Shown: piece by piece, positions 25,722 to 58,878 of the stretch
How the letters are laid out: the number at the start of each line of letters is the position of its first letter
Numbering within the stretch: position 1 is the first letter of the stretch
NCBI GenBank assembly: GCA_963674745.2
Contig: CAXXDV010000003.1
Location: 2,464,001 to 2,528,000, forward strand
Origin: Desulfosudaceae bacterium
GTDB taxonomy: Bacteria > Desulfobacterota > Desulfobacteria > Desulfobacterales > Desulfosudaceae
Direction: 5' to 3'
DNA length: 64,000 nt
Program-made: the position numbers and the translations under genes
Notes under the pieces: generated by a model
What the model was told of the DNA's origin: nothing
Database searches by the model: none
What the model saw: the letters and a program-made list of their open reading frames with translations, nothing else

Positions 25722-25778
25722 TTCACAAAATGTCAAATCATATTCACATATGATCAATACATAGGTATTAAATATGGT
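25722..25778 (+). promoter_or_regulatory. Conserved island promoter/operator, copy 1
   Basis: TTCACAAAATGTCAAATCATA-TTCACATATGATCAATAC...TATGGT; 21-bp tandem repeat, -10-like hexamer at +51. Confidence 0.8.
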
Positions 25779-25868
25779 TTACGCTATTTATTCAAAGGGC
25801 CCTTTTTTCCCCTTTTTGAGAACTTCTGTCATGTGCTATTTTCTTTACAACCTGTTTTGAGGAAAACG

Positions 25869-26129
25869 ATGGAATATCAATCAAAGGCAACAGACCTTAT
25901 CAGAAACCGCTGTTCCTGGCGCAGTTTTGGCAGCAGGGCCGTAGAAACGGAAAAAAGAAAGAAACCGGCCGGCAGTGCGGATATGCAGCGCCTTGATATG
26001 GGGATCGCAATGTGTCATTTTGAGCTTGCCGCAGAAGAAGTGAACCTTGAGGGGGAATGGATCGAAACAAAACCGGCTTTGGCATTGCCCAAAAGATGCG
26101 AATATCTGGTGAGCTGGAAGGAAAATTGA
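25869..26129 (+). pseudogene. Internally deleted nitroreductase-family gene
   Basis: N-terminal LIRNRCSWRSF joined almost directly to C-terminal DMQRLDMGIAMCHFELAA; 86 aa, centre missing. Confidence 0.7.
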
Positions 26130-26168
26130 GCAGTACGGCAACAATGCCTGAACTTCGGGAGGAAAAAA

Positions 26169-28565
26169 ATGGCTTTAGAAAAAAAACATGTCGTCTGCAG
26201 CATGTGTGATCAGGCCTGCAGCCTGGAAGCCCATGTCAGGGACGGACGATTGGAAAAACTACGCGGGTTTTCAGACCACCTGATGATGCCCAAAACCATT
26301 TGCTGCAAACCGGTCTATGCCGCTGAATGGTATTACAATGAACACCGCCTGAAATATCCCTTGAAACGAACCGGAGAAAGAGGCAGCGGCCAGTGGACCC
26401 GCATCAGCTGGGACCAGGCCATGGATGAAATCGCGGCAAAGCTTCAAAAGGTGGTTGATCAACATGGGCCGGAAGCTTTTGCCTGCTCCACCTCGGATCA
26501 TAATCTCCAGATGGGCAGCGGCATGGTCCGGCGGTTCATGAACCTTTTGGGAAGCCCGAATTACATCAGCGGCGTAAGCCTTTGCCAGGGCAATACGGCT
26601 GCCGTCAACAGCATGACCTGCGGCGGTTATCCTTTTCCGGATTATGAACAGACCCGCTGTATGGTATTTTTCGGGCATAATCTCCGGCCGAATTCCTGGG
26701 CCGGCGAATACTATCGTCTGAAAGCGGCCAGGGCCAGAGGCGCCAGGCTGATTGTTCTGGACCCGAGAAAGAGTCATTGCGCTAAAATGGCCGACATTCA
26801 TCTGCCTTTGCGGGCAGGCACAGACGCGGCCATGTGCCTGGGCTGGATCAACGTTATTATTGAAGAAGAGCTGTACGAAAAGAAATTCGTATCCCGCTGG
26901 TGTGTGGGTTTTGATGAACTCAAAGAACGGGCCAAAGAATACCCGCTGGATCGGGTGTCCCAAATCACGGGGGTTCCCGCGAACCTGATCCGTGAGGCCG
27001 CCATCATGTATGCCACCAACACGCCGGCCATTATTCCCTGGACATGTGCTACCGACCAGCAGCTGAACAGCACTTCCGCCCTGCGCTGCCAGGCCATACT
27101 GCGGGCATTGACCAACAGCCTGAATGTTCCCGGAGGGGACGTCCTGGTCGACCCCAACAAGATGATCATATCCGAGTCGGAACTGGAACTCCACGAACGG
27201 CTGCCCCAGGAAAAAAAAGACCTGCAGCTGGGGGCAAAGGATTATCCGGTCATGACCTATTGGGGGCAGCAGGCCTTAAACGAGCCCCGGCGCAGGGTAT
27301 GGGGCCATCCCTACCGGAACCTGATGAAAGGCATGTACATGGCCCACCCTCCGGCTGTATTTAAAGCCATGCGGGAGGGCGTTCCCTACCCGGTAAAAGC
27401 CCTTTTCTCCATCGCCAACAACACCCTCATGTGCTACACCAACCAGCAGGGCATTTTCGAGGCCATTAAGAATCTTGACCTGTTTGTGGTCAATGACCTG
27501 TTCATGACGCCCACCGCCCAAATGGCCGACTACGTGCTTCCAGGCGACTGTTTTCTGGAACGGCCTGTCCTGTACAATTATCAGGAGTGGCTCAGTACCT
27601 ATTCGAGTTTCGAAAAAGCCGTTGAACCACCCGGTGAGTGCAGGGATGTGTATTATTTCCTGCGCGAACTGGCCGTGCGTATGGGCATGGAAGAACACTT
27701 CCCCTGGAAGAACGTTGAAGAACTTTACGAATGCCGGATCTCCGGGACCGGGCTTACCTGGAAGGCGCTTTCAAAAAACCTTCCTTTTCTAACGGCACCC
27801 GCTCCTCCAATGCCTCCCGGCGCAATGAAGCTTACCCTGAAACTCTTTTCCAAAATGGGCCTTTTGCCGTTATTAAGAAACGGTATGACTTCCATGTTGC
27901 GCCAACACCAGAAAACCCGGGAGTTTTTTGAACGCCGCGGCATGAAACGTATGGCCCGCCTTTTCAGGGATAATTTTGTGCTCGTTCCCTACCCGCACGA
28001 AAAACGGGGCTTTGCCACCCCCAGCGGGAAAGTGGAGCTGTATTCCAGTGTTTTGGAATCCATTGGCTGCGACCCGCTTCCCTACTGGAAGGAGATTTAT
28101 CCCCCGGACGAAAACCCGTCGGAAGAAGAATATCCGCTCCGCCTTTTTGTCGGCCTGCGTGAAGATGGATATTTTCTCTCTGCCGGACGCCATGTCAAAA
28201 AACTGCGCCAACGCAACCCCGAACCACAGGCCATGATGAATACCCAAACCGCCCGAAAATCCGGCATCAATGATGGTGACTGGATTTATGTGGAAACCGA
28301 CTGGGGCAGGACAAAAATGAAAGCACAGCTGAGCGAGGACATACAAAAGGACCTGGTCGGGGTCCGCCACGGATGGTGGAAGCCGGAAATGGCCCCTGGC
28401 ACCCCTGAACTCTGCGGGGCCTGGGATTACTCGGACGGCGTCCTGCTAAACGATGATCCGGCGTTTTTTGACCCGGAACAGGGCCTGCCCGACCTGCGCG
28501 GCGCCAGGAAGTGCCGGGTAATGCCGATGGAAAATTTGCCTGAAAAAGAGGAACAGCAGGCGTAA
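26169..28565 (+). CDS. Acetylene hydratase-like W/Mo-bisPGD enzyme (DMSO reductase family)
   Basis: KKHVVCSMCDQAC...ICCK [4Fe-4S] motif, RRFMNLLGSPN...CQGNTA, ATPSGKVELYSS, GLRED, DPEQGLPDLRG closely track the Pelobacter acetylenicus acetylene hydratase sequence as recalled; no Tat signal. Confidence 0.82.
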   Translation: MALEKKHVVCSMCDQACSLEAHVRDGRLEKLRGFSDHLMMPKTICCKPVYAAEWYYNEHRLKYPLKRTGERGSGQWTRISWDQAMDEIAAKLQKVVDQHGPEAFACSTSDHNLQMGSGMVRRFMNLLGSPNYISGVSLCQGNTAAVNSMTCGGYPFPDYEQTRCMVFFGHNLRPNSWAGEYYRLKAARARGARLIVLDPRKSHCAKMADIHLPLRAGTDAAMCLGWINVIIEEELYEKKFVSRWCVGFDELKERAKEYPLDRVSQITGVPANLIREAAIMYATNTPAIIPWTCATDQQLNSTSALRCQAILRALTNSLNVPGGDVLVDPNKMIISESELELHERLPQEKKDLQLGAKDYPVMTYWGQQALNEPRRRVWGHPYRNLMKGMYMAHPPAVFKAMREGVPYPVKALFSIANNTLMCYTNQQGIFEAIKNLDLFVVNDLFMTPTAQMADYVLPGDCFLERPVLYNYQEWLSTYSSFEKAVEPPGECRDVYYFLRELAVRMGMEEHFPWKNVEELYECRISGTGLTWKALSKNLPFLTAPAPPMPPGAMKLTLKLFSKMGLLPLLRNGMTSMLRQHQKTREFFERRGMKRMARLFRDNFVLVPYPHEKRGFATPSGKVELYSSVLESIGCDPLPYWKEIYPPDENPSEEEYPLRLFVGLREDGYFLSAGRHVKKLRQRNPEPQAMMNTQTARKSGINDGDWIYVETDWGRTKMKAQLSEDIQKDLVGVRHGWWKPEMAPGTPELCGAWDYSDGVLLNDDPAFFDPEQGLPDLRGARKCRVMPMENLPEKEEQQA

Positions 28566-28585
28566 ACATTTTTTTGGAGGCGTCC

Positions 28586-29401
28586 ATGACCCAGCGCTTT
28601 AAAGATAAAACAACCATAATTACCGGCGCGTCTTCAGGGATTGGCGCGTCTGCCGCCAGGCAGTTTATCATAGAGGGTGCCAATGTTGCCCTTATTGCCC
28701 GCAACAAAGACAATCTTGATAAAATAGTTGAGCAAATGGGCAGTGAAAAGGCCATTGCCATTTCTGCGGACGTCACGGATCTTGATAAAATGTCAGCCGT
28801 TCTTCAACAGGTGAAAAAACATTTCGGCGCCATTCACATACTGGTCAATAACGCCGGCTTCAACTCCAGGGGTCCGATAGACACCCGGCCGCTGGATGAA
28901 GTGCTGCACATAGTTGACCTGAACTTAAGGTCACCGATAGCGCTTACCAGGCTTGTACTGCCGCTAATAAAAGAAGCCGGAGCCGGAGCCGTGGTAAATG
29001 TCGCTTCGCTGGCGGGTCGATATCCCCTGCCGGATGAGGCGACCTACAGTGCAACAAAATTCGGGTTAAGGGCCTTTACCTATGCCCTGGCAGAAGAAAA
29101 CAGGGGGACAGGGGTGACGGTTTCCGTTGTCTCTCCCGGCCCGGTAGATACAGGGTTTATTATGGAAGATATTGATGACGTTCCGGACCTTGTTTTTTCA
29201 CAACCCATGAGTTCCCCCGAACAGATCGCCGCTGCTATTCTGGATTGCGCCTGTGACGGGAAGGTGGAAAGGGCAATACCCAGGTTAAGCGGTTATTTAA
29301 CCACAGCAGGTTATCTCTTTCCCGGCCTTCAGCGAAAGTTAAGGCCTATATTAAAAAGGAAAGGGCGTAAAAACAAGTTGAGATATAAGGCCAGGGCTTA
29401 A
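28586..29401 (+). CDS. SDR oxidoreductase
   Basis: TGASSGIG, NNAG, YSATK; ATG 28586 after GGAGG. Confidence 0.9.
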   Translation: MTQRFKDKTTIITGASSGIGASAARQFIIEGANVALIARNKDNLDKIVEQMGSEKAIAISADVTDLDKMSAVLQQVKKHFGAIHILVNNAGFNSRGPIDTRPLDEVLHIVDLNLRSPIALTRLVLPLIKEAGAGAVVNVASLAGRYPLPDEATYSATKFGLRAFTYALAEENRGTGVTVSVVSPGPVDTGFIMEDIDDVPDLVFSQPMSSPEQIAAAILDCACDGKVERAIPRLSGYLTTAGYLFPGLQRKLRPILKRKGRKNKLRYKARA

Positions 29402-29480
29402 TTATGGTTTACGTTGTTTGTTCAAATGCCCTTTCTTTTTAAACATTTACCCTTATCCTTTAAAAAAGTGTGGTTGAGTA

Positions 29481-29675
29481 ATGAACGCAGACAGCCTTAA
29501 CGGGTTGGTGGCTATTTTGCCGACACCATTTACCGATGACGGTAAAATCGACGAAAACGGTTTAAAGCGACTGGTCAGAGCCGCCATTAAGAAACAGCTT
29601 GATGGTGTTGTCGTTCTGGGAAGTAATGTAGCGTTTCCCTTGGCGGAGCCGCAATACATATGGAACCCGCTGTGA
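29481..29675 (+). pseudogene. Truncated 5' duplicate of the DapA-like aldolase gene
   Basis: 29479-29640 is nearly identical to 30341-30502, then diverges. Confidence 0.85.
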
Positions 29676-29766
29676 TGTCGGAACGACCAAGGAGAACGAA
29701 TATGATTGATTTTTGTAGTGGAAACAGCTATAAAGGCAATATGAAAAGGGTTTTACGGGGGTCGAC

Positions 29767-29955
29767 ATGAACATCAACAGAACAGTTAATAAATATAAGC
29801 TGGAAGAACAGCCCAGCGATTTCGCTTTCTGGCAAACCCGGCCATGCCAGGAACGAATTGCCGCTCTGGAAGAGATCCGCCGGGATTATCATGCCTGGAA
29901 ATACCATGTTGAGCCGGGATTTCATAGAGTTTATCGAATCGTTAAACAGTCATAG
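29767..29955 (+). CDS. Small hypothetical protein overlapping a nucleotidyltransferase gene (TA-like partner)
   Basis: 62 aa, D..FW......ERI.ALE.IR pattern; overlaps the next ORF. Confidence 0.6.
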   Translation: MNINRTVNKYKLEEQPSDFAFWQTRPCQERIAALEEIRRDYHAWKYHVEPGFHRVYRIVKQS

Positions 29956-30343
29956 CGTCCGTTATCTGGTGGTGGGCGGATATGCCGTGGCTTTTCACGG
30001 TTACCCCCGGTACACCAAGGATCTGGATGTCTGGATCGACCGGACCCCGGAGAACGCTGCTTGCCTTATGAAGGCGCTGACCGCCTTCGGGTTCGGCTCG
30101 GTTGGTCTCACAGTTGATGACTTTCTCCGGGAAGACTATGTCATTCAACTCGGATACCCGCCCAACCGTATCGACATCCTGACCAGCATCAAGGGGCTCG
30201 TGTTCGTTGAATGTTATGGCGCCGGAGTCCAGGAGGAAATCGGCGCTGTTACAGTCAACTTCATCGATATCGACAACCTGAAAAAAAACAAACAAGCCAG
30301 TGGCCGGCCCCAGGATCTGGCGGACATCGAAAATCTGAAATAA
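29906..30343 (+). CDS. Nucleotidyltransferase (DUF6036-like)
   Basis: YLVVGGYAV..HG..R.TKDLD, NK.ASGRPQD..D; start set at ATG 29906. Confidence 0.8.
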   Translation: MLSRDFIEFIESLNSHSVRYLVVGGYAVAFHGYPRYTKDLDVWIDRTPENAACLMKALTAFGFGSVGLTVDDFLREDYVIQLGYPPNRIDILTSIKGLVFVECYGAGVQEEIGAVTVNFIDIDNLKKNKQASGRPQDLADIENLK

Positions 30344-31314
30344 TGAATGTAGATAGCCTTAACGGGTTGGTGGCTATTTTGCCGACACCATTTACCGATG
30401 ACGGTAAAATCGACGAAAACGGTTTAAAGCAACTGGTCAGAGCCGCCATTGAGAAGCAGCTTGATGGTGTTGTCGTTCTGGGAAGTAATGCAGAGTTTCC
30501 CTATCTCCGTTTTGAAGAAAAAATACAGGTCATGGAAATTGCCGCTTCGGCAGCAAACGGAAAAATCCCTGTTATTGGTACGGCATCGGCCTGGAGTACA
30601 GATCAGGCGATTGATCTTGCAAAAGAGGCAAAAGCAGCAGGCTGCGATGCGCTTATGGCGGCGTTACCCGTTTATTTCAACCTTGACTTGAAAAATGTTG
30701 TGCACCATTTTAAATCCCTCACCAAAGCAATGGACCTGCCCGTTTATTACTACCATTTTCCTGATGTAACCGGTTTGAAAATACGGCCAAAAGACCTTGC
30801 CCGGATTGCGGAAATCGATGGCATTGTCGGGACAAAACTGACCGTTATGAACCGCCCGTTTTTAAAGAAAACGATTGACGCCACACGGCCTTATGACTGG
30901 AAAGTGTTTACCGGGGCATCATTGCTTCTTTATGACTGTCTCGAATTTGGTGGTGCCGGTGTGTTTTGTCCGATACCGCTTGTCGGGACTGAGGATGTCA
31001 GGATGTTATGGGACGCTTTTTCCTCGGGTGATTATAAAAAAGCAAAACAGATTCAGAAGAAACTGCTCAAAACGATCCCCCTGTTCACCGGTTCTTCACT
31101 GCCACCTGCAATTCTATCTCTCGGCTTTCAGTTTATGGTTCGACTGCCTTTTTTATCGGGCAAAAGACCTTTTGCCACTCACGGGTTATTGAAAGAAGCT
31201 TTGAGATTGCAGGGATATCTGGCCAGCAACAAAGTGAGAAGACCCCATGTTGAAGTCAGTCAGGCAGAGCAAAAGCTTGTTGAAAAAACACTGGCGTCGT
31301 TTGGGTGGCTATAG
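30343..31314 (+). CDS. DapA/NanA/HOGA family class I aldolase
   Basis: LPTPF, LGSNAEF, YYYHFP, GIVGTK Schiff-base Lys; true start ATG 30343. Confidence 0.85.
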   Translation: MNVDSLNGLVAILPTPFTDDGKIDENGLKQLVRAAIEKQLDGVVVLGSNAEFPYLRFEEKIQVMEIAASAANGKIPVIGTASAWSTDQAIDLAKEAKAAGCDALMAALPVYFNLDLKNVVHHFKSLTKAMDLPVYYYHFPDVTGLKIRPKDLARIAEIDGIVGTKLTVMNRPFLKKTIDATRPYDWKVFTGASLLLYDCLEFGGAGVFCPIPLVGTEDVRMLWDAFSSGDYKKAKQIQKKLLKTIPLFTGSSLPPAILSLGFQFMVRLPFLSGKRPFATHGLLKEALRLQGYLASNKVRRPHVEVSQAEQKLVEKTLASFGWL

Positions 31315-31345: not shown

Positions 31346-32506
31346 TTATGGAATCGGCGATAATTTTTCAATATAATCAGAATTTAATTTATTAATGTCA
31401 TTACACCCGATCAATGCCATTACCCGTTCCATTTCTTCTTTCAAGATCGAAAGCGCCCTGTCTACCCCTTTTTCTCCCCCGGCGGCCAATCCATATAAAT
31501 AGGCCCTGCCAATCATGCAGGCATCGGCGCCCAGGGCGATCGCTTTAATAATATCAGACCCTCTGGTAATGCCGCCGTCAATCAGTATCTCGAGTTGATC
31601 CTTTACGGCCTCTTTTACCTTTGGTAAAAGTTCTAAAGCCGTGGGGGCGCCGTCCAGCTGCCGGCCGCCATGATTCGATAACACGATGCCGCTGGCACCG
31701 ATATCAACGGCCTTTTTTGCATCTTCTACCGATTGTATTCCTTTTAAAAGGAAGGGGCCGTCACCCCAGTAGTCTTTTATTTCTCTGGCATCTTTCCATG
31801 AAACAGACGGATCGTACTGGCCATTAATTGTATCAACTACTTTTTGCACATCACCGCCATGGGGTAAATACCCGGTCATATTTCCCATAACCAGTTTGGG
31901 AGATGTTAAAAACCGGAATAACCATTCTGGTCTTGCGAGAGAGGATAAAACCATGTTTATTTTTAAGCGGGGGGTTCCATGACCGTGATGAATATCACGT
32001 TCTCTTTTACCCAGAACCGGTGAATCTACCGCTAAATAAATACCCTTGTACCCGGATGTTTTGCAGCGGTCTAAAAACCTGTACACCCAGTCCCTGTTAT
32101 GCCAGATATATATCTGAAAAAACAAGTCCCCGGTTGATACGGCTGCCGTATCTTCTATAGAAGTAGTAGAAACGGTTGACAGGGTATAGGGAATCTGGGC
32201 TTTACTGGCAGCTTTGACAACCGCTTGTTCGCCTTTATAGTGGAAGAGACGGGAAAATCCGGTAGGCGCCAGGATTACAGGCAGCGCGCTATCCCTGCCA
32301 TTTATCCTGGTTTGCAGGTTAATTGTCGTAACATCTTTCAATACGCTTGGCCGAAAACCATATGTTCTGAAAACCGAACTGTTCCGCTGCATTGTAATTT
32401 CATCTTCAGCCCCGCCGTCAATGTAGTCGAAAGTGATACGTGGAATACTTTTTTTGGCAAGAGTCCGTAAATCATTTATGGAAACACAACGATCAACATT
32501 TTTCAC
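31346..32506 (-). CDS. FMN-dependent alpha-hydroxy acid dehydrogenase/oxidase (LldD family)
   Basis: FDYIDGGAEDE, LAPTG, FQIY, SNHGGRQLD, DGGI.RG.D. Confidence 0.92.
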   Translation of the reverse strand: MKNVDRCVSINDLRTLAKKSIPRITFDYIDGGAEDEITMQRNSSVFRTYGFRPSVLKDVTTINLQTRINGRDSALPVILAPTGFSRLFHYKGEQAVVKAASKAQIPYTLSTVSTTSIEDTAAVSTGDLFFQIYIWHNRDWVYRFLDRCKTSGYKGIYLAVDSPVLGKRERDIHHGHGTPRLKINMVLSSLARPEWLFRFLTSPKLVMGNMTGYLPHGGDVQKVVDTINGQYDPSVSWKDAREIKDYWGDGPFLLKGIQSVEDAKKAVDIGASGIVLSNHGGRQLDGAPTALELLPKVKEAVKDQLEILIDGGITRGSDIIKAIALGADACMIGRAYLYGLAAGGEKGVDRALSILKEEMERVMALIGCNDINKLNSDYIEKLSPIP

Positions 32507-32523
32507 AGCCTGACTCCAGTTTT

Positions 32524-32730
32524 TTATTTATCTTTAATATCCTTTAATACTGAAAAAATGCCGCTGAAATAAGTCACTCCGACAAAAAACCACATAACAC
32601 ACAATCCGACAATACTTTTTAGTTCTTCTTTTGGAAATGGTTCCCAGACATGTGTTTCCCACATAAAGTATGTGATAATCGGGGTCGGAATGATGAATAA
32701 TAGAAACGGAATCAGGTACTTGAATTTCAT
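32524..32730 (-). CDS. Small membrane protein (2 TM)
   Basis: Two hydrophobic segments, AAGGA RBS, in operon. Confidence 0.55.
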   Translation of the reverse strand: MKFKYLIPFLLFIIPTPIITYFMWETHVWEPFPKEELKSIVGLCVMWFFVGVTYFSGIFSVLKDIKDK

Positions 32731-32885
32731 GCTAAAATCCTTTTTATTGGTTGTTTTCGTTGTCTTAGAATTTACGCGAGCGTGTCTTTGGCTGAAGAGG
32801 AGATCGTTTCATCAATCGTCAATGTCCCGGATTCATCTATTCTTCTCCGTGTCATCCATTGTGAGAATTACCGGGGGAATAATCT

Positions 32886-33500
32886 CTAACCTACATCAAT
32901 ACTTCTAAAGCCGCTTAACTTCTCCAGTCTTCCAAGAAAATGATAGGCAAACCCGAATGGTTTGAATCGAACACCCAGCATGCTGAAACTGATCAGCTCG
33001 ATAATTGTTTGGGTTTCAGAGAGTGTATCCATATAGGCAAAATCAACAGCAATAGGCCATGTTTGTATTTTCCCTCTTACCCAAGTGGGATACCCTGCTG
33101 CGTTCAAACTTTCCATTTCTTTATCAACATCTTTAACTAAGAGCCCCAGGTGCTGAGCCACTGTCCTGCCTTCAGGATCAAGGCTTTGCTTGTAAAAGTC
33201 TGAGCCTTCACCCGGCTCAAGAAGTTCGAGGTCAACCCCCTGATATTTGGCCAGACCGACCTTCCCGCGAAAGCTTCTCGGTGTACCGTGCTCATCCCAT
33301 CGCGCGAGGCTACCGGCTGAAATGAAAAACGGCCCGATTCCCATCATTTCAAGCCGTTTAGCAGCTTCTTCCACGTCTGGCACTACCAGGCCGAGTTGAT
33401 GTATTTGAGGCAGGCTGTGTTTCTCTCGAAATTCGGCTGCAAGGTTATTGACAGATTTTTTAAAGTTCTCTGCCGCAAGCAGGTCGTCTAAAAGCAACAT
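32886..33500 (-). CDS. VOC/glyoxalase-like (methylmalonyl-CoA epimerase-like) protein
   Basis: HQLGLVVPD, LELLEP, QHLGLLV, IIELI. Confidence 0.78.
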   Translation of the reverse strand: MLLLDDLLAAENFKKSVNNLAAEFREKHSLPQIHQLGLVVPDVEEAAKRLEMMGIGPFFISAGSLARWDEHGTPRSFRGKVGLAKYQGVDLELLEPGEGSDFYKQSLDPEGRTVAQHLGLLVKDVDKEMESLNAAGYPTWVRGKIQTWPIAVDFAYMDTLSETQTIIELISFSMLGVRFKPFGFAYHFLGRLEKLSGFRSIDVG

Positions 33501-33611
33501 TGGTTCCCCTAATTTTTTTTAGTCATTTATGGCGATATGCCCGGAAGCCCCCTGTTTCAGGCGAGAACAATTCATTCAGCAGGGTGTCGGTTGTCTCTTC
33601 TTCAGGGCCTA

Positions 33612-34646
33612 TTAATTTAGGTTCTCCAGAGTCCGGGCGATTATAATATTCACGACCCTGTCGTTTATTTCCCCTTCACTTATTACTAATTCATAGAGTT
33701 CCAGATCATCTATAAGCGCACTGATGAACTTTTCATCTGAAACCGCTTTTGCCAGTATCGTTTTGTCTTTACGGTCTGCAATATGGGTTTCAACAAGTTT
33801 GGCAAACATGGGAGTTTTAACGTATTTTTTTGTAATAGCCCTTGCTGTTTTCTTCGTGCCTTCTTTTGAAGGACCGGATTCAATTGCGATCATCATTAAC
33901 TCGTTATCTGAAGTAAGAAAATCAAGGATCGCTTCATCCTTATATGTCTGCTTTGCACGATTTCGTATGCTCGTTCGGGCCACGTCAATATTATCAGGAT
34001 GTAATGGGTCAGCATTATAATATTTATCGTTTTTAACAAATTCTTCCAGGTTTTCTAATATCTTGCGGGGGATCTTTGCCAGCTCACCATTCACCATAAA
34101 TGCTTTCAGGTTGCCCCCTGTTTCCAAATGGATGGAAAATATAACCTCGGTTTTATCATGGGCTTTATAAGACATGTTAATCTGTTGATACATTTTGGGA
34201 AGGCGCACATATTCCTCTTTATCCGGTATTTCAGGATCAGTAATGAGTTGTGATGTTGTCGTTATGTCACCGGTTTCAAGGGCAACAGAAGTCTTCGCAC
34301 TGATAATGGCATCCCGGTCATCTGCCGGCCAGGGGAAGTCCATGACCATGTACAGATCCATGTCATTCGAGTTGTATTGCCTGAGAACTTTTGAGCTTAT
34401 TACGCCATCCATCCATTCCTTCATTACCGGTGTGTCCCTAAGGACTGCACCGATCGCTGCCATGCTGGCATTGATAACTGCAGTGGCCTTGAATGCCTTG
34501 TATCTCGAGCCTTCAACATCTCGTGAGTAGGTTATGATACCATCATTATCTTTTTCAATTTCCCAATCAACAGCACCTGTTGCCGGCTGCAAAAGAAGCG
34601 CTAAGGTAAAACAAATGATACCTGTGTATACGCTTAAATTTTTCAT
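33612..34646 (-). CDS. Secreted START-domain lipid-binding protein
   Basis: Signal peptide; W.IEKDNDGI..YSR, KAFKA, W, FPWPADDRD START motifs; helical C-terminal extension. Confidence 0.75.
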   Translation of the reverse strand: MKNLSVYTGIICFTLALLLQPATGAVDWEIEKDNDGIITYSRDVEGSRYKAFKATAVINASMAAIGAVLRDTPVMKEWMDGVISSKVLRQYNSNDMDLYMVMDFPWPADDRDAIISAKTSVALETGDITTTSQLITDPEIPDKEEYVRLPKMYQQINMSYKAHDKTEVIFSIHLETGGNLKAFMVNGELAKIPRKILENLEEFVKNDKYYNADPLHPDNIDVARTSIRNRAKQTYKDEAILDFLTSDNELMMIAIESGPSKEGTKKTARAITKKYVKTPMFAKLVETHIADRKDKTILAKAVSDEKFISALIDDLELYELVISEGEINDRVVNIIIARTLENLN

Positions 34647-34704
34647 AATAGTTCCTTATACTTTTGTGTGGTGGTGCTGATCCTGAAGCAATGGCAGGGG
34701 GTTT

Positions 34705-35547
34705 CTATTTCATAGCTTTTTCGGGTAATCGGATTTTATTCATTACTAACCCTGTTATGATATAATTAAGCACCGGGCTCAGCCTTGACATGATATCCAT
34801 GAATTTCGCGTCCATCCCTACCATAAGTCTTTTTTTATTTTTAATTATCGCTCTTACGATCTTCTCCGCGCATTCTTCAGGTGTTGTTCTGAAAATAATA
34901 TCGGAAGACTTCACAAGATATTCTTTATTCATATTTTCATTAACACCCTTCACAAAACGCATATTTCTGGCAATATTGGTTTTAATCCCCCCGGGGTGAA
35001 CCGACGTGACATGAATGTTACTTGTCCTTAGTTCCTGGACCAGGGTCTCATTAAACCCCCTTACCGCGTATTTAGCACTGTTGTAGGGGCCGTTATGCGG
35101 GAAAGGCACCACGCCGTTAATACTCGAGATATTGACAATATTTGCTTCAGGGCGTTTCCTTAAATGCGGCAGAAACGCCTTGGTGCCATACACCACCCCC
35201 CAAAAAACAATGTTAAAACACCATTCAAAATTTTCATAAGAAATGTCTTCCAGGCTGTCGTGGACAGCTACGCCGGCATTATTGATGATAATATCAACCT
35301 GGCCGTGTTCATGCACAACATAATCAGCCCACTCAACCACCTGTTCTCTGTCTGATACATCGAGGGTAAACGTGCTGACCTTAATACCGCTTACTTTAAT
35401 CATATCAGCCGTCTTTTTCAGTTCATCTTCATTAATATCTGAAATAGCCAGATGGCACCCCCTGGCCGCAAGGTTTAACGCAAGGCACCGGCCGATTCCG
35501 GATCCGGCGCCTGTAATTGCCGCTACTTTATTCTTCAAGTTTTTCAT
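34705..35547 (-). CDS. SDR oxidoreductase
   Basis: TGAGSGIG, NNAG, YNSAK, HPGGI; ATG 35547 with AGGAG RBS. Confidence 0.9.
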   Translation of the reverse strand: MKNLKNKVAAITGAGSGIGRCLALNLAARGCHLAISDINEDELKKTADMIKVSGIKVSTFTLDVSDREQVVEWADYVVHEHGQVDIIINNAGVAVHDSLEDISYENFEWCFNIVFWGVVYGTKAFLPHLRKRPEANIVNISSINGVVPFPHNGPYNSAKYAVRGFNETLVQELRTSNIHVTSVHPGGIKTNIARNMRFVKGVNENMNKEYLVKSSDIIFRTTPEECAEKIVRAIIKNKKRLMVGMDAKFMDIMSRLSPVLNYIITGLVMNKIRLPEKAMK

Positions 35548-35569
35548 AATGCTATGGTTCTCCTTTTTT

Positions 35570-36610
35570 TTAAAGCAGCTTGTCACAGAGAAACGACACC
35601 TGGTCCTTGACGATGGTTTCGAAAAACTCGCCCACGTAGATGTCGAAATGGCCGGCGTCGTAAACGCGGACGTCCACGTTGGGCAGGCCTTTCGCAAAGT
35701 CGATGGTGGGACCGGCAGGGGCCACCGAGTCTTTGGAACTCACACAGATGAGGGCGGGACATTTGAGATGGCGCATGTATTTGCCCGGCACGTCGAGACC
35801 GATGCGCAGGGCGAATCTGCCCGCCACGCCATTGGCCGAATGCGTTCCTGTGGGCAGCCGCATGCTCCCCACGAACCGGGTCGTTTTCTCCTGTTCTTCA
35901 AAATCACCAAGTGAAACGTGGGCCGGCAGCTCGATGCGCTTGCTCGCGAAAAGTTTATAAAGTCTTGAGAGCTGCGCTGAAAATGTCGTGCCCGGCGGCA
36001 GCAGCGTGAGAATGCCTTTGACTACATCCGGCGCGGTCATTAATGCCGGTGTACCCGGAGTGCCCACGAGGGGTACGAGCAGCGGCTTGAACCCCACCCA
36101 GGCCATTAGCTGGTCGATGATGGCTATTGTACCGCTTCCCAGCATGCTCATAATTCCCAGTGCGCGCACCGAAGCGGGACCGCTCGTAAAAGGGCATTGG
36201 GAAATCACCGCGGCCACACCTCCGTCCTCGGCCCCCACCTTGATTACATGTCCTCCCGAAAAGGACGTGCCAAACAGGGCGATGCGCTCCGTGTCGATGA
36301 AAGACAGGGAGCGAGCGTATCTCAGCGCCGCGTGCCAGTCCTGCCGTTGCCGTTTGATGTCGAGCAGGTACCGGGGATTTCCCTCGCTGGAGCCGAAATG
36401 CCGATAGTCAAAAACAAGGGCCGCAAAACCCGCCTGGCTGAAACGCTCTGCATAGGCGTCCAACCGCATCTCGCGGATAGAGCCCAGGCCATGGGCCAAA
36501 ATAACCAGCGGCGCCCGCTCTATCCCCTCCGGGCGATAAAGCCAGGCGCTGCACCTAATTCCCAGGGATTCAAACGAAACATCTGTCCTGTTAAAGATAT
36601 GAGAAGACAT
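35570..36610 (-). CDS. Alpha/beta hydrolase
   Basis: AHG, FDYRHFG.S.G.PR, GTSFSGG nucleophile elbow, D and GHF. Confidence 0.85.
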   Translation of the reverse strand: MSSHIFNRTDVSFESLGIRCSAWLYRPEGIERAPLVILAHGLGSIREMRLDAYAERFSQAGFAALVFDYRHFGSSEGNPRYLLDIKRQRQDWHAALRYARSLSFIDTERIALFGTSFSGGHVIKVGAEDGGVAAVISQCPFTSGPASVRALGIMSMLGSGTIAIIDQLMAWVGFKPLLVPLVGTPGTPALMTAPDVVKGILTLLPPGTTFSAQLSRLYKLFASKRIELPAHVSLGDFEEQEKTTRFVGSMRLPTGTHSANGVAGRFALRIGLDVPGKYMRHLKCPALICVSSKDSVAPAGPTIDFAKGLPNVDVRVYDAGHFDIYVGEFFETIVKDQVSFLCDKLL

Positions 36611-36626
36611 GCGATCCCTCTTAAAA

Positions 36627-37451
36627 TTATTCCATCAATTTTTTAAATGCAGCGCCTGTCCACATAACCATTCTAATGGGAAAAATCCGGGAAGCCAGGT
36701 CCATCAGTCGGGCGTCTACGCCCACCATTATTCGTTTTTTATTTTTTTTTATGCCGGCAATAATGATCCTGGCGGCTTTTTCCGGTGAGGTTTTAGCGAT
36801 CCGTGAAAAATTCTCGGCAGCCCCGGCCTGATCCTGGCTGCCGGTTGCTGAGTGGTAGAAACGGGAGTTTGACACGATATTGGTGTTGATACCCCCGGGG
36901 TGAACGCTGCTGACATAAACGCCGGTACCGGCCAGTTCCTGCATCAGGGTTTCGCTGAAGGCCCGCACCGCATATTTAGACATGTTGTAAGGGCCGTTGT
37001 GGGAAAAGGGGATCATGCCGTTGATGCTGGAAATATTGACGATATGACCTTTTCCGCGTTTTTTCAGCAGGGGCAGAAAGGCCCGGGTGCCATACACAAC
37101 GCCCCACATGTTGATGTTGATGAGCCATTCAAAATCTTCGTAAGAGACGTTTTCAAGGGATTCAGTAACAGCGACCCCGGCGTTGTTGATAATCACGTCC
37201 ACTCCGCCGTGATGTGCCGCCGCGTCATCGGCATACCGGTACACCTGTTCCCGGTTTCCCGTGTCCACCAGGTGCGTGCTGATGGATGCGCTCAGCCCGC
37301 CGGCCATCCGGGCGGTTTCCTCGAGCCCTTTTTCGTTGATGTCCGACAACGCCAGCCGGCAGCCTTCCTGCGCCAGCCGCATGGCCAGCGCCCGGCCGAT
37401 CCCCGAACCCGCACCGGTAATGGCAACCACCTTGCTTTCCAGTGATTCCAT
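36627..37451 (-). CDS. SDR oxidoreductase (paralog of 34705-35547)
   Basis: TGAGSGIG, SSINGMIPFSHNGPYNMSK. Confidence 0.9.
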   Translation of the reverse strand: MESLESKVVAITGAGSGIGRALAMRLAQEGCRLALSDINEKGLEETARMAGGLSASISTHLVDTGNREQVYRYADDAAAHHGGVDVIINNAGVAVTESLENVSYEDFEWLININMWGVVYGTRAFLPLLKKRGKGHIVNISSINGMIPFSHNGPYNMSKYAVRAFSETLMQELAGTGVYVSSVHPGGINTNIVSNSRFYHSATGSQDQAGAAENFSRIAKTSPEKAARIIIAGIKKNKKRIMVGVDARLMDLASRIFPIRMVMWTGAAFKKLME

Positions 37452-37489
37452 CGTTTATCCTTCTCATTTATTATGTCTAGAGATTTATT

Positions 37490-38332: not shown

Positions 38333-38389
38333 TTTACTTGTCTCCTTTTTTATTAAATATAAAGAACGCCTGATTGAATCAATAACTAA

Positions 38390-38446
38390 ACCATATGTGA
38401 CCGCTAAGTATTGACCATATGTGAATATAATTTGACATTTTGTGAA
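38390..38446 (-). promoter_or_regulatory. Conserved island promoter/operator, copy 2
   Basis: Minus strand TTCACAAAATGTCAAATTATA-TTCACATATGGTCAATAC...TATGGT, facing the 38332 gene run. Confidence 0.8.
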
Positions 38447-40890: not shown

Positions 40891-40943
40891 CTAGGGTAAT
40901 CATACAACCGAGCTTTTTTACAAATTGGAATAAGGAGAGCCTC

Positions 40944-45517: not shown

Positions 45518-45518
45518 C

Positions 45519-46316: not shown

Positions 46317-46335
46317 AAAATTTGGGAGGAAAATC

Positions 46336-46674
46336 ATAAACGACACATGCCAAGACAAGACAAACTGCCCCTGGACAGGAAGGATCGCCCTGATCCTCGC
46401 CCTTGTTGCTGTTTTTATGGCGTTTAAGGCCGGGCATTCCTCAAAAATCAACGCCATAACCAGCATCAATGAGATGATAACGGACAAGGTCGTACCCCAG
46501 ATGGCCAGGGCCACCGAAAGGGATGTCATCGGCCATATCTACGATCTGAAACGGACCATGGTTACCCTTGAGGAGATAAAGGAGACCACGGCCAACGAGG
46601 ACGTCAAAGCCATGGTGGACAAAATCCGCAAGGACATTGAGGAACTTAACGTCAAACTCTTTGTGCATGAATAG
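46336..46674 (+). CDS. Small single-TM coiled-coil protein (probable ATA start)
   Basis: GGAGGA RBS 5 nt before an in-frame ATA at 46336, which adds TM segment RIALILALVAVF to the 46417 ORF. Confidence 0.6.
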   Translation: MNDTCQDKTNCPWTGRIALILALVAVFMAFKAGHSSKINAITSINEMITDKVVPQMARATERDVIGHIYDLKRTMVTLEEIKETTANEDVKAMVDKIRKDIEELNVKLFVHE

Positions 46675-46679
46675 GGGGT

Positions 46680-48545
46680 ATGGCCATGCCTGATAAGGAC
46701 AAGCCGGAAAACATTTTCCAAAAACCGATCAACCGCCGTAATTTTTTAAAAATAAGCGCTGCCGCAGCAGCGGCCGGCGTAATGGGGCCCGGACTTTCAG
46801 GCTGTGCCCCGGAGATTTACCGGGGCCATTACCCGGATGTGCCCGAAAACCATGTCTCGCTTTCGCCCAACGGGAAAAGTGTGCTCATCCTGGGCGGTGG
46901 TTTCGGCGGCATGCACGCGGCCTGCGAACTGCTTGACCGGGGTTTTGAAGTCACGATTATCGAAAAATCAAGCATGCTCGGGGGAAAACTCAAGAGTTGG
47001 CGGGATCCCGGGTTCGGCATCCCGCCCACGGATGATCCCAACTGGAAGGGATATCCCAGGGATCACGGTGCGCACGCGGTGTGGGGGTTTTACAACAACC
47101 TGAGAGAATTCATGGGCAGACACGGCTATAAACTGGCGACCTTCCCCCGGGAATCCACCATGTACAATTTTCTGGATAAAGACGGTTCCCAGGCTGTCAT
47201 GGGTTCTGCACCCACATGGCCCGGCCCCCTGGCAAATCTTCAAAGAGGCCTTGAGACAAAACATGCCATTGAAAAATTAACCGGAGAAGATCCGGGCGCC
47301 ATGCTGTACATGAACAAAATCTTTGGCTTTGACTATGAGAGCAAGAAGCAGCGGGCCTATCTGGACAGCATTTCTTTTCCCGAGTGGGCGCGACTGGTAG
47401 GCATACCGGACAAGCTGATTTATAAGTTCTTCGGTCCCACGTCTGAAATGGCCATGTTCGACCACATCGATAACACCAGCGCGCTCTATATGCTGACAAC
47501 GCTGAGCCTGGGCTCGGGCAGTTATAGGGACATGTGCGTTGATATTTTCACCCACCCTCCCGGCGAAACCTATGCCGAGCCCATTGAGCGCTACATCCTG
47601 GCCAAAGGCGGAAAGATCATTTATGACATGCCGGTCATCAAGGTCAATCATGACGGCAGAAAGATTAAGAGCGTCCTTGCCGGTGATGAAAATTTTGTCC
47701 CGGGTGTGAAAAACTGGAAATGTAATGTCTGCGGATCAACCTTTCCTTCGCCGGCCAAGCCGTTCAGATGCCCGGTATGCGGTGCCCCCATTACCCAGAT
47801 CAGGGCCCTGTCTTCAGGCCCGCCTAAAGAATACCTGGCGGATTATTATGTGGTTGCCATGGACACGCCCGGCGCCAAACAGGTGGTGGCAAAATCGGGG
47901 CTGCTGGGGGACACCTATTTTGACAATATCATGAAGCTGGATGCGACCGGCGTCTATGTTGTCAATTTATGGTATGCCGACTGCAATGCATGGGAGCGCC
48001 GTTTTCCCAAACATGGTGATTTTTTCGCTTCCGGATTCAAGTTTCTGGGCATCACGCTCAACTGGGCGGTTTCTCGAAAATCCAAAGACGGACAAGACAG
48101 ACAATACCTTGTACCGGATTATCAGGGCAAAAACATCAACGTGATTGAAACCCAGATAGCCAATACCGAGCGGGTGGAGAACAAATCAGACGAAGAAATC
48201 GCCCGGCTGGTTCACGAGGAGTTATTGTGCGTGATGCCGGATTTACCCGTGCCGACGGATTTTTATGTCAACCGGTGGGACACCTATTCACCCCAGCGGA
48301 CCGGGTACGAGGCCCTGCGACCCGATATTCAGAGCCCGGTAGACAACCTGTTTTTCATCGGCGACTGGGTTCTGACAAACCATGAAAGCGTTTATATGGA
48401 GAAAACCAACGTGGCCTCAAAAATGGTGACCAACCTGTTACTGGACAAGATCGGACAAAAACAGGGCCGTATGAAAATACTGAAAAGCGGCGATCCCGAC
48501 CTTACGATGAGGGTACTCAAAGCGTTAAACAATCCATACCCGTAA
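46680..48545 (+). CDS. Tat-exported lipoprotein FAD oxidoreductase, CrtU/zeta-carotene desaturase-like, with rubredoxin-like insert
   Basis: NRRNFLK Tat motif, LSGC lipobox, GGGFGG...LGGK, HGAHAVWGFYNNL, CNVC-x12-CPVC, NLFFIGDWV..YMEK. Confidence 0.8.
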   Translation: MAMPDKDKPENIFQKPINRRNFLKISAAAAAAGVMGPGLSGCAPEIYRGHYPDVPENHVSLSPNGKSVLILGGGFGGMHAACELLDRGFEVTIIEKSSMLGGKLKSWRDPGFGIPPTDDPNWKGYPRDHGAHAVWGFYNNLREFMGRHGYKLATFPRESTMYNFLDKDGSQAVMGSAPTWPGPLANLQRGLETKHAIEKLTGEDPGAMLYMNKIFGFDYESKKQRAYLDSISFPEWARLVGIPDKLIYKFFGPTSEMAMFDHIDNTSALYMLTTLSLGSGSYRDMCVDIFTHPPGETYAEPIERYILAKGGKIIYDMPVIKVNHDGRKIKSVLAGDENFVPGVKNWKCNVCGSTFPSPAKPFRCPVCGAPITQIRALSSGPPKEYLADYYVVAMDTPGAKQVVAKSGLLGDTYFDNIMKLDATGVYVVNLWYADCNAWERRFPKHGDFFASGFKFLGITLNWAVSRKSKDGQDRQYLVPDYQGKNINVIETQIANTERVENKSDEEIARLVHEELLCVMPDLPVPTDFYVNRWDTYSPQRTGYEALRPDIQSPVDNLFFIGDWVLTNHESVYMEKTNVASKMVTNLLLDKIGQKQGRMKILKSGDPDLTMRVLKALNNPYP

Positions 48546-48687
48546 ACCGGGATGGCACAGTTAGGGCTATGAATAGATTTCCGGACGATTTCCGAGGTCA
48601 GTATATCTAATTCAATCTATTAACAGCGAAAATTAGTCAACTAACAAAGGCTCATTTTTGATTCTTAACATATTTACAGGGGGGATT

Positions 48688-49530
48688 ATGCTTACAGTAG
48701 ATTGGGCCTGGACGTATGCTTTTGGCGCAGGATTCGCGGCCTGCGCGGCAAGACAACTGAAAAAAGAAGAAAAACCGTTTGACAACCAGTGGTATGTTTT
48801 TACGCTTACTTTTTTTTCGGTTTTTTTCGTACCCGCATGTGTTTACCTCTTATGGGAACATCCCCAATGGGAAAGCGCGCAGCTGGCCAAAACGTTTACT
48901 GACCTGCCTGCCTGGCTGGTGACCGGTTATGCGGTCACCAATGTCACGCAGGGGATCCTGGGCTTTTGGGTTTCATTCAAACTGATTAAAAAAGGGAATT
49001 ACTACGCCGCCCACGCCAACTGGATGGCCGCCTGGATCCTCATGTGGTTCCTCGCTTTCTGCGGATGGGATTGTACCGGCTACCAGCGTTGGCTTTATGA
49101 CATGAGTGTAAACAACGGTCAATACTGGACACCCGGCACACACATGGGTGTCCGATTTTTCTATGCCAGCAAGATCTGGTGGACACTGGTGGTCATGGGG
49201 ATCTTTTTCGTCCCCATGCTGATTCACGGCTCTGTCAGCTTCGTCCGCAACGGCTTTAAGGAAGACCCATCCATTCCAGCCGGAACTGCCCCCGGCCCCA
49301 TCAGGATCCTGGCTGTTGTTTTTGGCGCACAATATGTTGTCTGCCTGGGGCTGGCAATCCTGGCCACGCTGTGCGTCATGGGCTTACGGAACCTGACCGG
49401 CAGTACGCTGACCGGTTACCTCATTGGCGTTCCGCTTTTTTCTATAGCAACCTACGTTCTGCTTTTCAGAAGGGGCATGCCCATGAACTTAATTGCCAGG
49501 CAATTGTATGTTAAAGAACCGGGGGAATAG
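48688..49530 (+). CDS. Multi-pass membrane protein of unknown function
   Basis: About 7 TM segments, Trp-rich; VD..W.YA.GAGFA..A.RQL N-terminus; ATG 48688. Confidence 0.7.
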   Translation: MLTVDWAWTYAFGAGFAACAARQLKKEEKPFDNQWYVFTLTFFSVFFVPACVYLLWEHPQWESAQLAKTFTDLPAWLVTGYAVTNVTQGILGFWVSFKLIKKGNYYAAHANWMAAWILMWFLAFCGWDCTGYQRWLYDMSVNNGQYWTPGTHMGVRFFYASKIWWTLVVMGIFFVPMLIHGSVSFVRNGFKEDPSIPAGTAPGPIRILAVVFGAQYVVCLGLAILATLCVMGLRNLTGSTLTGYLIGVPLFSIATYVLLFRRGMPMNLIARQLYVKEPGE

Positions 49531-57095: not shown

Positions 57096-57103
57096 CTATC
57101 AAT

Positions 57104-57481: not shown

Positions 57482-57485
57482 CGGA

Positions 57486-58712
57486 ATGTCGAAACGGTAC
57501 AAACCAATGAGCAGAGAAAACTACAAACTGTTTTCTGAGGGTCGGTTAGGCGGCCTGTCTGTCAAAAATCGCCTGGTCCGATCGGCTACGTATGAGGCGT
57601 GTGCTACTGACGCCGGAAGCGTGACCGAAAAGATGCTCTGCTTGTACAAAGACCTGGCCGCAGGAGGGGTTGGGACGATTATCACCGGTCACATGGCGGT
57701 CTGTCTTTCCGGCAGGGCGATGCCCCGGCAAACCTGCATTCACTCCGATGCTTTTATTGACGACCTGGCCCGGTTGGCTGAAGCGGTTCATAATCAGGGC
57801 GATAACTGCAAGGTGATCGCGCAGTTAAGCCATTGCGGCAGGCAGGTGACCCATCACAACCATGAGGCTGAATGTGTCGGGCCGTCCGAAGTGCCCAGTC
57901 CCCTCCTCAGAAAACAGTGCCGGAAGCTCACCACTAAAGAAGTTAAAAAGGTTATTCAGGACTTCGCAGCGGGTATTGAGCGGGTCAAAAAGGCAGGCTT
58001 TGATGGGGTTCAGCTGCACGCAGCCCACGGCTGGCTGTTGAGTTCGTTTATGTCTCCCTACACAAACCGCCGTAAAGATGAGTACGGCGGTTCTTTAAAA
58101 AACAGGACAAGAATCGTCCGGGAAATTGCGGCCTCGGCCCGAAAAAAAACAGGCGACTTTCCTTTGCTTATCAAGATAAACGCAACCGATTATATAGATG
58201 GCGGGATCAGCGAGAATACTTTTCCGGAACTGGCCCGGGAAGTAAAAGCCTCTGGATTCGACGCCATTGAGGTAAGCGGCGGCATGTGGGATTGCCTTGT
58301 CCGCACAGAAGCGGAACTCGGATTTCGGCCGATGCCCATACCTGAAGCCCACACCAGAATAAGCAGCCCCGAAAAGCAATCCTATTTTTCTAAGGCGGTT
58401 GAATCGCTCCATCTCGACAAACCGGTCATCCTGGTCGGGGGAAACAGAAATGCAGACCGCCTGGAAGAACTGTTGCAAACCAGCGCTGTTGACTTTATTT
58501 CTCTATCCAGACCGTTGATTTCAGAGCCGGATTTGCCCAGGCGCTGGCTTGAAGGAAAAGGCAGTCCCGGCACGGATTGTGTCTCATGCAATTCATGCCT
58601 TCAGACGATATCCGCCGGGGGCAGCCTCGAATGCATGCTTAAACAAAACCGGATTAAACAGGAAATCGTCAGGCGCTTTGCTCCAAAACTCTGGAAATTC
58701 TTATTGAAGTAA
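57486..58712 (+). CDS. NADH:flavin oxidoreductase (Old Yellow Enzyme family)
   Basis: KNRLVRSAT, QLSHCG, FDGVQLHAAHGWLL, NRR.DEYGG, CVSCNSC. Confidence 0.92.
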   Translation: MSKRYKPMSRENYKLFSEGRLGGLSVKNRLVRSATYEACATDAGSVTEKMLCLYKDLAAGGVGTIITGHMAVCLSGRAMPRQTCIHSDAFIDDLARLAEAVHNQGDNCKVIAQLSHCGRQVTHHNHEAECVGPSEVPSPLLRKQCRKLTTKEVKKVIQDFAAGIERVKKAGFDGVQLHAAHGWLLSSFMSPYTNRRKDEYGGSLKNRTRIVREIAASARKKTGDFPLLIKINATDYIDGGISENTFPELAREVKASGFDAIEVSGGMWDCLVRTEAELGFRPMPIPEAHTRISSPEKQSYFSKAVESLHLDKPVILVGGNRNADRLEELLQTSAVDFISLSRPLISEPDLPRRWLEGKGSPGTDCVSCNSCLQTISAGGSLECMLKQNRIKQEIVRRFAPKLWKFLLK

Positions 58713-58821
58713 AAAATTGCGGCACGACTTTAATATCTCCCGGATTACCTTTAATGCCCCGACCGCGCAAATTTCTTCCGGTACTCCCCGGGGTTAATCC
58801 AGTCCTTTTTACATTTGTTTT

Positions 58822-58878
58822 TTCACAAATTGTCAAATCATATTCACTTATGGTCAATACATAGCGCTCAGATATGGT
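58822..58878 (+). promoter_or_regulatory. Conserved island promoter/operator, copy 5
   Basis: TTCACAAATTGTCAAATCATA-TTCACTTATGGTCAATAC...TATGGT. Confidence 0.8.

Follow-up and report, generated by a model that had tools for sequence, protein, structure and literature searches.

A repeated promoter cassette and its likely AraC-family regulators in a genomic island of a Desulfosudaceae bacterium

Results

Promoter copies in the island

We analysed a 64,000-nucleotide stretch (hereafter the window) of the genome of a Desulfosudaceae bacterium, probably a sulfate reducer (assembly GCA_963674745.2, here G000; contig CAXXDV010000003.1, positions 2,464,001 to 2,528,000 of the forward strand), in which a preliminary description had reported five copies of a promoter motif, each facing a run of genes, and had read them as binding sites of the AraC-family protein encoded at 38561-39610. 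All five copies were confirmed, on the strands and at the positions listed in Table 1, with a second TTCAC 21 bp and a TATG(G/C/T)T hexamer 51 bp from the first base. Each consists of two 15-bp boxes of the form TTCAC-N5-RTCAA with a period of 21 bp: box 1 (TTCAC AAAWT GTCAA) occupies motif positions 1-15 and is followed, after a 6-bp gap, by box 2 (TTCAC-N5-RTCAA) at positions 22-36, and conserved TAC(A/T)TA, TATG and TAnnnT stretches lie 3' of the boxes. The arrangement as two 15-bp direct repeats, two helical turns apart, was found in all 13 close copies compared.

A matrix trained on the five copies in the window was run over both strands of the 5,546,839-base genome and found seven copies, which scored 66.7-83.6 bits, while the best non-overlapping match that was not a copy scored 15.6 bits. 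A 38-bp version of the matrix gave the copies 56.2-59.7 and the next match 21.8, and a relaxed form of the pattern from the preliminary description also returned exactly seven matches. The two additional copies (copies 6 and 7; those in the window are copies 1 to 5) lie beyond the end of the window, at G000:C3:2537766(+) and 2552443(+), or 73766 and 88443 in window numbering. All seven are confined to 63 kb, and the tandem occurs nowhere else in the genome. The bare core TTCAC-N16-TTCAC was unremarkable in the genome (13 found, about 7.7 expected); the signal resides in the full tandem.

Scatter of the motif over the genome without regard to gene orientation had been named as a possible refutation, and this was not what we observed, as every copy points at a gene start, six of the seven at a start codon led by a ribosome-binding site (RBS) 111-378 bases from the first base of the motif. 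Copy 3 faces a 266-codon frame without a clear RBS. In a scan for consensus sigma-70 promoters and terminators, counts were near chance, no copy was detected on its own strand, and the ends of operons were not settled; that the copies were missed is expected of activator-dependent promoters. Read on the opposite strand, positions 10-15 of box 1 form a perfect TTGACA in 13 of 13 copies. Beside araC this hexamer could serve transcription of araC itself as a -35 element, although it is not followed by a conserved -10.

Table 1. Predicted promoter copies and the genes associated with them (window coordinates unless a contig is given)
Feature	Position	Strand	Remarks
Promoter copy 1	25722-25785	+	likely -10 TACGCT at 25780-25785; predicted +1 near 25792
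Promoter copy 2	38383-38446	-	just past the araC1 3' end; predicted +1 near 38376; TAGTTA at motif positions 59-64, without the final T
Promoter copy 3	39707-39770	+	likely -10 TAGATT at 39765-39770; predicted +1 near 39777; 97 bp from the ATG of araC1, with which it stands back-to-back
Promoter copy 4	40834-40897	+	likely -10 TAGGGT at 40892-40897; predicted +1 near 40904
Promoter copy 5	58822-58885	+	likely -10 TAGCCT at 58880-58885; predicted +1 near 58892
AraC1	38561-39610	-	PF12625 ligand-binding domain and double helix-turn-helix (HTH)
AraC2	G000:C3:2536640-2537695		paralog of AraC1 (78% identical) by sequence comparison
Nitroreductase remnant	25869-26129	+	behind copy 1; 86 codons, internal deletion; intact frame of 285 codons in G007
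Acetylene-hydratase-like Mo/W enzyme	26169-28565	+	PDB 2e7z, E 8e-215; behind a motif copy in G002, G007 and G010
Short-chain dehydrogenase/reductase (SDR), inserted nucleotidyltransferase-like frame, dihydrodipicolinate synthase (DHDPS)-family lyase	28574-31314	+	likely distal genes of the copy-1 unit; G002 keeps the order
Copy-2 run: acetoacetate-decarboxylase-like, SDR, alpha/beta hydrolase, SDR, START, glyoxalase-like, flavin mononucleotide (FMN) alpha-hydroxy-acid dehydrogenase	31346-38332	-	partly behind a copy in G002
266-codon frame	39944-40744	+	faced by copy 3; no Pfam match
SDR, second SDR, EthD-like	40944-43721	+	behind copy 4; true start of first SDR 40944; first and third duplicated behind copy 7
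Rieske, cytochrome b with 4Fe-4S, multiheme-cytochrome-c-like, twin-arginine translocation (TAT) flavoenzyme, membrane protein	43746-49530	+	shares the strand of copy 4; putative co-transcription only
SCP2-like, thiamine pyrophosphate (TPP) enzyme closest to 2-hydroxyacyl-CoA lyases, SDR	59100-62032	+	behind copy 5; SCP2 label a lead only

AraC-family proteins encoded in the island

AraC1 carries a C-terminal double HTH (PF12833, E 3e-17; PF00165, E 6e-8; both above the cut-off) and an N-terminal PF12625 ligand-binding domain (E 8e-35). Four genes of the genome encode an HTH_18 domain, and just two of their products, AraC1 and the paralog AraC2, carry PF12625; both are encoded in the island, araC1 back-to-back with copy 3 and araC2 back-to-back with copy 6. 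AraC1 fell under the cut-off of every NCBIfam equivalog that it matched (QhpR, 193.6 against 250; GliR, 178.8 against 570; CypR, 91 against 500), and its closest solved structures are VirS (PDB 8rcx, E 4e-17, residues 33-345) and PDB 5chh (E 4e-16, residues 166-345).

Genes faced by the copies

The hydratase-like operon described before is indeed faced by copy 1, with the correction that the internally deleted nitroreductase gene stands first. Further along this unit, at 29479-30502, a 162-base duplication of the 5' end of the DHDPS gene flanks the nucleotidyltransferase-like frame; it is absent from G002, where the SDR gene lies directly before the DHDPS gene. A second, truncated copy of this remnant and of the 5' end of the hydratase-like gene, with no promoter copy, was seen at 62241-62721.

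In the copy-4 run, the EthD-like protein was matched in the Atlas at 0.92, with EthD on 50% of the members, and the targets of copy 7 are paralogs of the SDR and EthD-like genes of this run. In G002 a single frame of 546 codons (L121:16479-18119, G002:C4) encodes both of these proteins, whose genes are separate here. A candidate identity of the SDR at 40944 as a ketosphinganine reductase received no support in a PDB search and was dropped. The Rieske/cytochrome b run that follows lacks a motif copy, and the stretches retrieved around the sites of relatives contained no match to it; its TAT flavoenzyme has a weak likeness to HpnE and carotene desaturases. The proposed SCP2-TPP-SDR operon is faced by copy 5, but its SCP2 label derives from an Atlas lead, a fourth match with SCP2 on 28% of the members, and the protein has no Pfam match. 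Copy 6 faces genes for a 906-amino-acid glycyl radical enzyme and its activase (L001:12143-15888, equal to G000:C3:2538143-2541888); the best PDB matches of the enzyme were glycerol and diol dehydratases, it contains a long insert, and it scored below every NCBIfam subfamily cut-off. The single inducible pathway into which the preliminary description had joined these runs is putative.

Other elements were seen around the island. A tRNA-Leu(GAG) gene lies at 21264-21349, and a 17-base piece of its 3' end occurs again at 25188-25204, so that the repeat brackets genes for Fic and DUF4143 proteins in what is likely a small integrated element; the repeat does not bound the regulon, because the regulon begins just after this element. 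A repeated element of about 330-470 bases (62982-63450) has at least seven copies in the genome, three of them in the region, and genes for a HipA-like kinase and an HTH partner lie between copies 5 and 6 (L001:7537-9124).

Origin of the copies and conservation of the boxes

All seven copies align over about 77-125 bases at 74-86% identity, several of them through the RBS region. Two pairs belong to longer duplications: the block of copy 3 and araC1 is a duplicate of that of copy 6 and araC2 (80% over 1223 bases), and copies 4 and 7 are duplicated together with the SDR genes behind them (85% over 1001 bases). By this comparison the copies are one homologous cassette of about 110 bp spread by duplication rather than independently evolved sites, and the earlier interpretation needs changing on this point. 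The boxes have nevertheless been conserved: between araC1 and araC2, 43 of 108 four-fold sites differ versus 0 of 30 box positions, and for the SDR pair behind copies 4 and 7 the corresponding counts are 25 of 125 and 1 of 30. Over all pairs of copies the A and B cores of the boxes (TTCAC and RTCAA) differ at 1.4%, versus 43% at positions 43-51.

Distribution among relatives in the family and order

Four of 13 genomes of the family (G000, G002, G007 and G010) contain the motif, and the identical four carry the hydratase-like gene. G002 has three copies and an AraC protein 83% identical to AraC1, and G010 two copies and a protein 74% identical; araC is back-to-back with a copy at 70-71 bp. The four close AraC proteins (the G000 pair and those of G002 and G010) hardly differ in the DNA-binding domain. 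The arrangement of the cassettes is another one in the relatives, where they stand before the hydratase-like gene, before the SDR/EthD pair and before the decarboxylase run, and in G010 and the contig L142 the hydratase-like gene stands tail-to-tail with araC. In contig L040 a close araC is represented by its C-terminal half alone, and there is no site.

The pattern was matched in six of 401 genomes of the order, two of them by single matches with three mismatches. We judged single matches with two or three mismatches in G006, G013, G556 and G593 to be probable chance matches, those of G556 and G593 on the mismatch count; L024 and L027 scored below 22 by the matrix. An exact scan for the tandem in metagenome contigs gave 0 matches. 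In a sample of the phylum, AraC relatives at E 1e-55 were present in 5 of 400 other genomes and were about 34-36% identical.

A related tandem beside distant araC genes

When 180 loci were scanned with the matrix, the sole new match was a diverged tandem in the metagenome contig L141, which faces away from an araC gene whose product is 52% identical and lies 14 bases from the likely ATG of that frame. From motif positions 1-36 in the seven copies we derived a half-site matrix and applied it, at a threshold score of at least 3, to 131 loci of araC relatives, of which 121 were scored and 10, short or duplicate, were skipped. At loci with tblastn scores of at least 150 bits, a tandem on the strand facing away from araC was found in 16 of 28. 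The controls gave fewer: the opposite strand had 2 of 28, either downstream window 1 of 26, periods of 19, 20, 22 and 23 bp 2-5 of 28, and other gene starts of the genome 37 of 2992. The consensus of the distant tandems is roughly T(T/G)CGC-N5-RTCAA. Related tandems accompany araC genes of Desulfobacterota, of Bacillota, of Bacteroidota and of one cyanobacterium, and the pattern is kept beside araC genes whose products are 30-52% identical.

A second placement was seen among the weaker relatives, in which the downstream windows were often positive (18 of 38 and 15 of 53). We rejected the view that these matches were noise, since the tandems sit after araC: a period-21 tandem just after araC, on its own strand, was present at 37 of 123 loci (2-7 for other periods and 3 for the other strand), most of the 37 being closely related Bacteroidota. 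Copy 2, which lies just after araC1, matches this placement. In the Bacteroidota loci L048-L115 the sequence GGCGT-AAAAT-GTCAA-N6-GTCTT-TAAGT-GTCAA stands just after araC and is followed by a -7-like box and often by a frame of about 120 codons, a pattern that appears to mark a conserved AraC regulon.

Position of the -10 element

The hexamer TATGNT at positions 52-57, which the preliminary description took as the -10 element, is present, but comparison suggests that the -10 is more likely the TAnnnT at 59-64, with a start site about 7 nt downstream of the one predicted before. TAnnnT stands at 59-64 in 11 of 13 close copies; all 13 have TA at 59-60, and the three letters that follow are free to vary (2.0, 2.0, 0.54, 0.24, 0.51 and 1.38 bits over the six positions), and such free middle letters fit a sigma-70 -10 element. 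Among 22 distant matches, found by a matrix that is blind past position 36, 10 have a TAnnnT beginning at 58/59 and 1 has it at 51/52, while each placement occurs in 3 of the 37 background matches. L141 has TAGATT at 59-64 and AATGGG at 52-57. A -12 at position 59 would place the boxes at -70/-56 and -49/-35 and +1 about 7 nt past the hexamer, so that the near box would end at about -35 and touch a -35 region of AATACA with an 18-bp spacer.

The 37 matches downstream of araC have TAnnnT at 58/59 only once, and AnnTTTG at 59-65 in 35. The latter agrees with the -7 box TAnnTTTG given for Flavobacterium and Bacteroides in the available text of one report (PMC7641319) if that box starts at position 58; this support is weakened because TAnnnT also starts at 66 in 27 of the 37.

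Discussion

Regulation of the island by AraC-family proteins

We consider it highly probable that the repeat is a ligand-inducible promoter cassette bound by the island's own AraC-family protein or proteins, the binding being predicted from sequence. A dimer of AraC1 and/or AraC2 would bind the two 15-bp boxes 21 bp apart, each monomer reading an A box (TTCAC) and, one helical turn away, a B box (RTCAA), and the bound dimer would recruit RNA polymerase to a weak promoter whose probable -10 is the TAnnnT at 59-64. The PF12625 domain would sense a lipophilic ligand. Copies 3 and 6, which stand back-to-back with araC1 and araC2, may in addition mediate repression of these two genes. Duplication of the cassette would have placed the acetylene-hydratase-like enzyme, the SDRs, the decarboxylase/hydrolase/hydroxy-acid-dehydrogenase run, the hydroxyacyl-CoA-lyase-like enzyme and the glycyl radical enzyme under one switch. 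The earlier assignment of the copies to the AraC protein at 38561-39610 agrees with this in that an AraC-type protein of the island is the likely regulator, as the comparisons support; a second paralog exists, and there are seven sites rather than five.

Several observations weigh against this interpretation, chief among them that on G007. This assembly of one contig, 99% complete, has before its hydratase-like gene a site that agrees with copy 1 at every one of 42 bases, and a close AraC was not found there: the best protein match was 28% identical, there was no DNA match, and its two HTH_18 genes are non-orthologous. The G007 module is about 90% identical in DNA to that of G000, and a frame beside it looks like a transposase; a recent gain of part of the island or a recent loss of araC would explain the orphan site, and a reading of the site by the distant (28%) PF12625 protein of G007 is possible. 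Furthermore, 12 of the 28 closer distant loci have no tandem at the threshold, the weaker araC relatives have an upstream tandem in just 1 of 38 and 5 of 55, and the close copies share descent while several distant loci are kin, so that the counts overstate independence. At the promoter itself, TATG at 52-55 is also conserved, 10 of 13 close copies share a TAnnnT at 52-57, this hexamer is a perfect TATAAT in copy 6, and TGGTCA (30-35) could serve as a -35. Finally, close relatives of the region's three NifA-like activators are encoded in G002, G007 and G010, so that all four motif-bearing genomes have them, a distribution that fits the motif better than that of AraC.

The observations at the promoter can be combined in an alternative that keeps the same AraC regulator and takes TATGNT at 52-57 as the -10 and TGGTCA as the -35, the spacer being 16 bp. 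On this layout the whole -35 would lie under the near box (-42 to -28), and AraC would repress or activate in an unusual way. We regard this geometry as unlikely, and strongly favour the -10 at 59-64 on comparative grounds, because distant relatives keep TAnnnT at 58/59 and not at 51/52, L141 loses the hexamer at 52-57 and keeps that at 59-64, and published AraC-family sites end at about -36/-35.

A regulator encoded elsewhere might instead read the site, either a CRP/FNR-like protein on the quasi-palindromic boxes, which read TT(C/G)AC-N5-GT(C/G)AA, or an OmpR/PhoB-like protein on a 10-11-bp sub-repeat. The boxes appear to resemble FNR and Pho boxes, and such a regulator would explain the G007 site in a genome that has no AraC ortholog. 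The tandem is nevertheless confined to the 63 kb, unlike a genome-wide CRP/FNR or PhoB regulon, no such protein is found among the annotated frames of the region, and three of the four motif-bearing family genomes have a close AraC, which makes this explanation very improbable. We grade in the same low range the view that the likeness is a mere trace of recent duplication and shuffling, in which a recombination hub would have left dead promoters with no shared regulator now. The alignment of the copies, the two duplicated blocks, the gene remnants nearby and the orphaned site of G007 would all fit such a history, but silent sites and spacer DNA are far less conserved than the boxes, each copy points at the start of a gene, and the pattern persists beside araC genes whose products are 30-52% identical.

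That the boxes are upstream activating sequences of the NifA-like sigma-54 activators is hardly credible despite the distribution of these proteins and the imperfect palindrome in each box, because no site with at most two mismatches to the sigma-54 -24/-12 consensus lies within 260 bases of the 13 copies (the one three-mismatch match is inside the copy-1 remnant), the promoter matches sit at 49714, 54453, 66815 and 85464 before other exported-protein genes, the start codon is just 91-115 bases from several of the copies, and the related tandem follows araC genes across phyla. These sigma-54 matches (49714 and 54453; G000:C3 2530815 and 2549464) precede genes for exported lipase-like and uncharacterised proteins and are interleaved with the three NifA-like activator genes, and may represent a second, sigma-54 regulon in the region.

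Possible function and significance

Taken together, the island appears to hold a real, well-supported AraC-type regulon of an ordinary kind, for which we provide a corrected promoter map and a set of unstudied target enzymes. The control mechanism is that of textbooks, and the worth of the observation lies in the grouping of several orphan anaerobic enzymes, among them the acetylene-hydratase relative, the unclassified glycyl radical enzyme and the lyase-like enzyme, behind one likely sensor. It is a guess that the target enzymes act on one substrate; from the START, SCP2-like and lyase-like genes, and by analogy with the ligands of SphR and GliR, we infer that such a substrate would be lipophilic. 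A cassette-based reporter could reveal the inducer and hence the likely substrate.

More speculatively, and with clear reservations, the cassette might mark an anaerobic pathway, so far undescribed, in which the W/Mo hydratase-like enzyme would add water to a lipophilic and probably unsaturated substrate and the product would be processed by the SDRs, the hydroxyacyl-CoA-lyase-like enzyme and a new glycyl radical enzyme, while the site would belong to a cross-phylum recognition pattern of PF12625 AraC proteins (a variable A box, an RTCAA B box, a 21-bp period and a core element from 58-59). If this tentative proposal were true, the AraC ligand would name the substrate, and the pattern would allow regulons of PF12625 AraC proteins to be predicted. 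The tandem beside araC across phyla offers a testable binding rule for this large, little-studied subfamily, and the copies suggest that a regulon can be assembled by copying a promoter-leader cassette before new genes. A search of the literature on acetylene hydratase (in alkene and sulfate-reducer contexts) and on AraC regulons in Desulfobacterales, with most subscription papers outside its coverage, found nothing on the motif or the island.

Comparison with known systems

The hydratase-like enzyme, whose gene is the most broadly conserved of the targets, resembles acetylene hydratase (PDB 2e7z) in that the alignment keeps the N-terminal Cys motif with its Asp, presumably the catalytic residue, and the Cys of the MCIG stretch; we assume that these residues have the roles that they have in acetylene hydratase. 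It differs by an insert of about 70 amino acids and by Gln in place of Ile after the MCIG Cys, and in view of the insert and of the changed residue next to a conserved Cys acetylene is only a possible substrate. Among regulators, VirS (8rcx) and 5chh are distant from AraC1 and uninformative on the site or the ligand.

As far as the available parts of the reports go, SphR, VqsM and CdpR of Pseudomonas aeruginosa, which presumably carry PF12625, and GliR, whose model is among the best NCBIfam matches of AraC1 though below its cut-off, are AraC-type activators with 15-bp sites, as proposed here. In these extracts, SphR binds sphingosine and recognises 15-bp direct-repeat half-sites 6-8 bp apart in three promoters (PMC3900636), and GliR (PA3027), VqsM and CdpR have 15-bp sites, GliR activating glycerolipid genes (PMC8151288). 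The P. aeruginosa sites described there are GC-rich, whereas the boxes of the cassette are AT-rich.

The nearest parallels in site architecture, again judged from the portions of the reports available, are MekR at PmekA, XylS at Pm and MtlR at PmtlE, which like the cassette have two 15-bp direct repeats with A and B sub-boxes and a 21-22-bp period; their repeats end at the -35 region, as those of the cassette would with the -10 at 59-64. XylS is described as binding two such repeats (PMC5481539), the MtlR blocks are placed at -72/-58 and -50/-36 with the same distance given for XylS and MekR, and the MekR site reads CACC-N5-CTTCAA-N6-CACC-N5-CTTCAA (PMC4514859). Unlike these systems, the cassette has another box sequence, belongs to another phylum, is predicted from sequence and occurs in seven dispersed copies rather than at one promoter. 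Like the cassette, the MekR site in that account ends in TCAA and has a 6-bp gap, and the first repeat of MtlR is followed by an A-tract, as is box 1 here.

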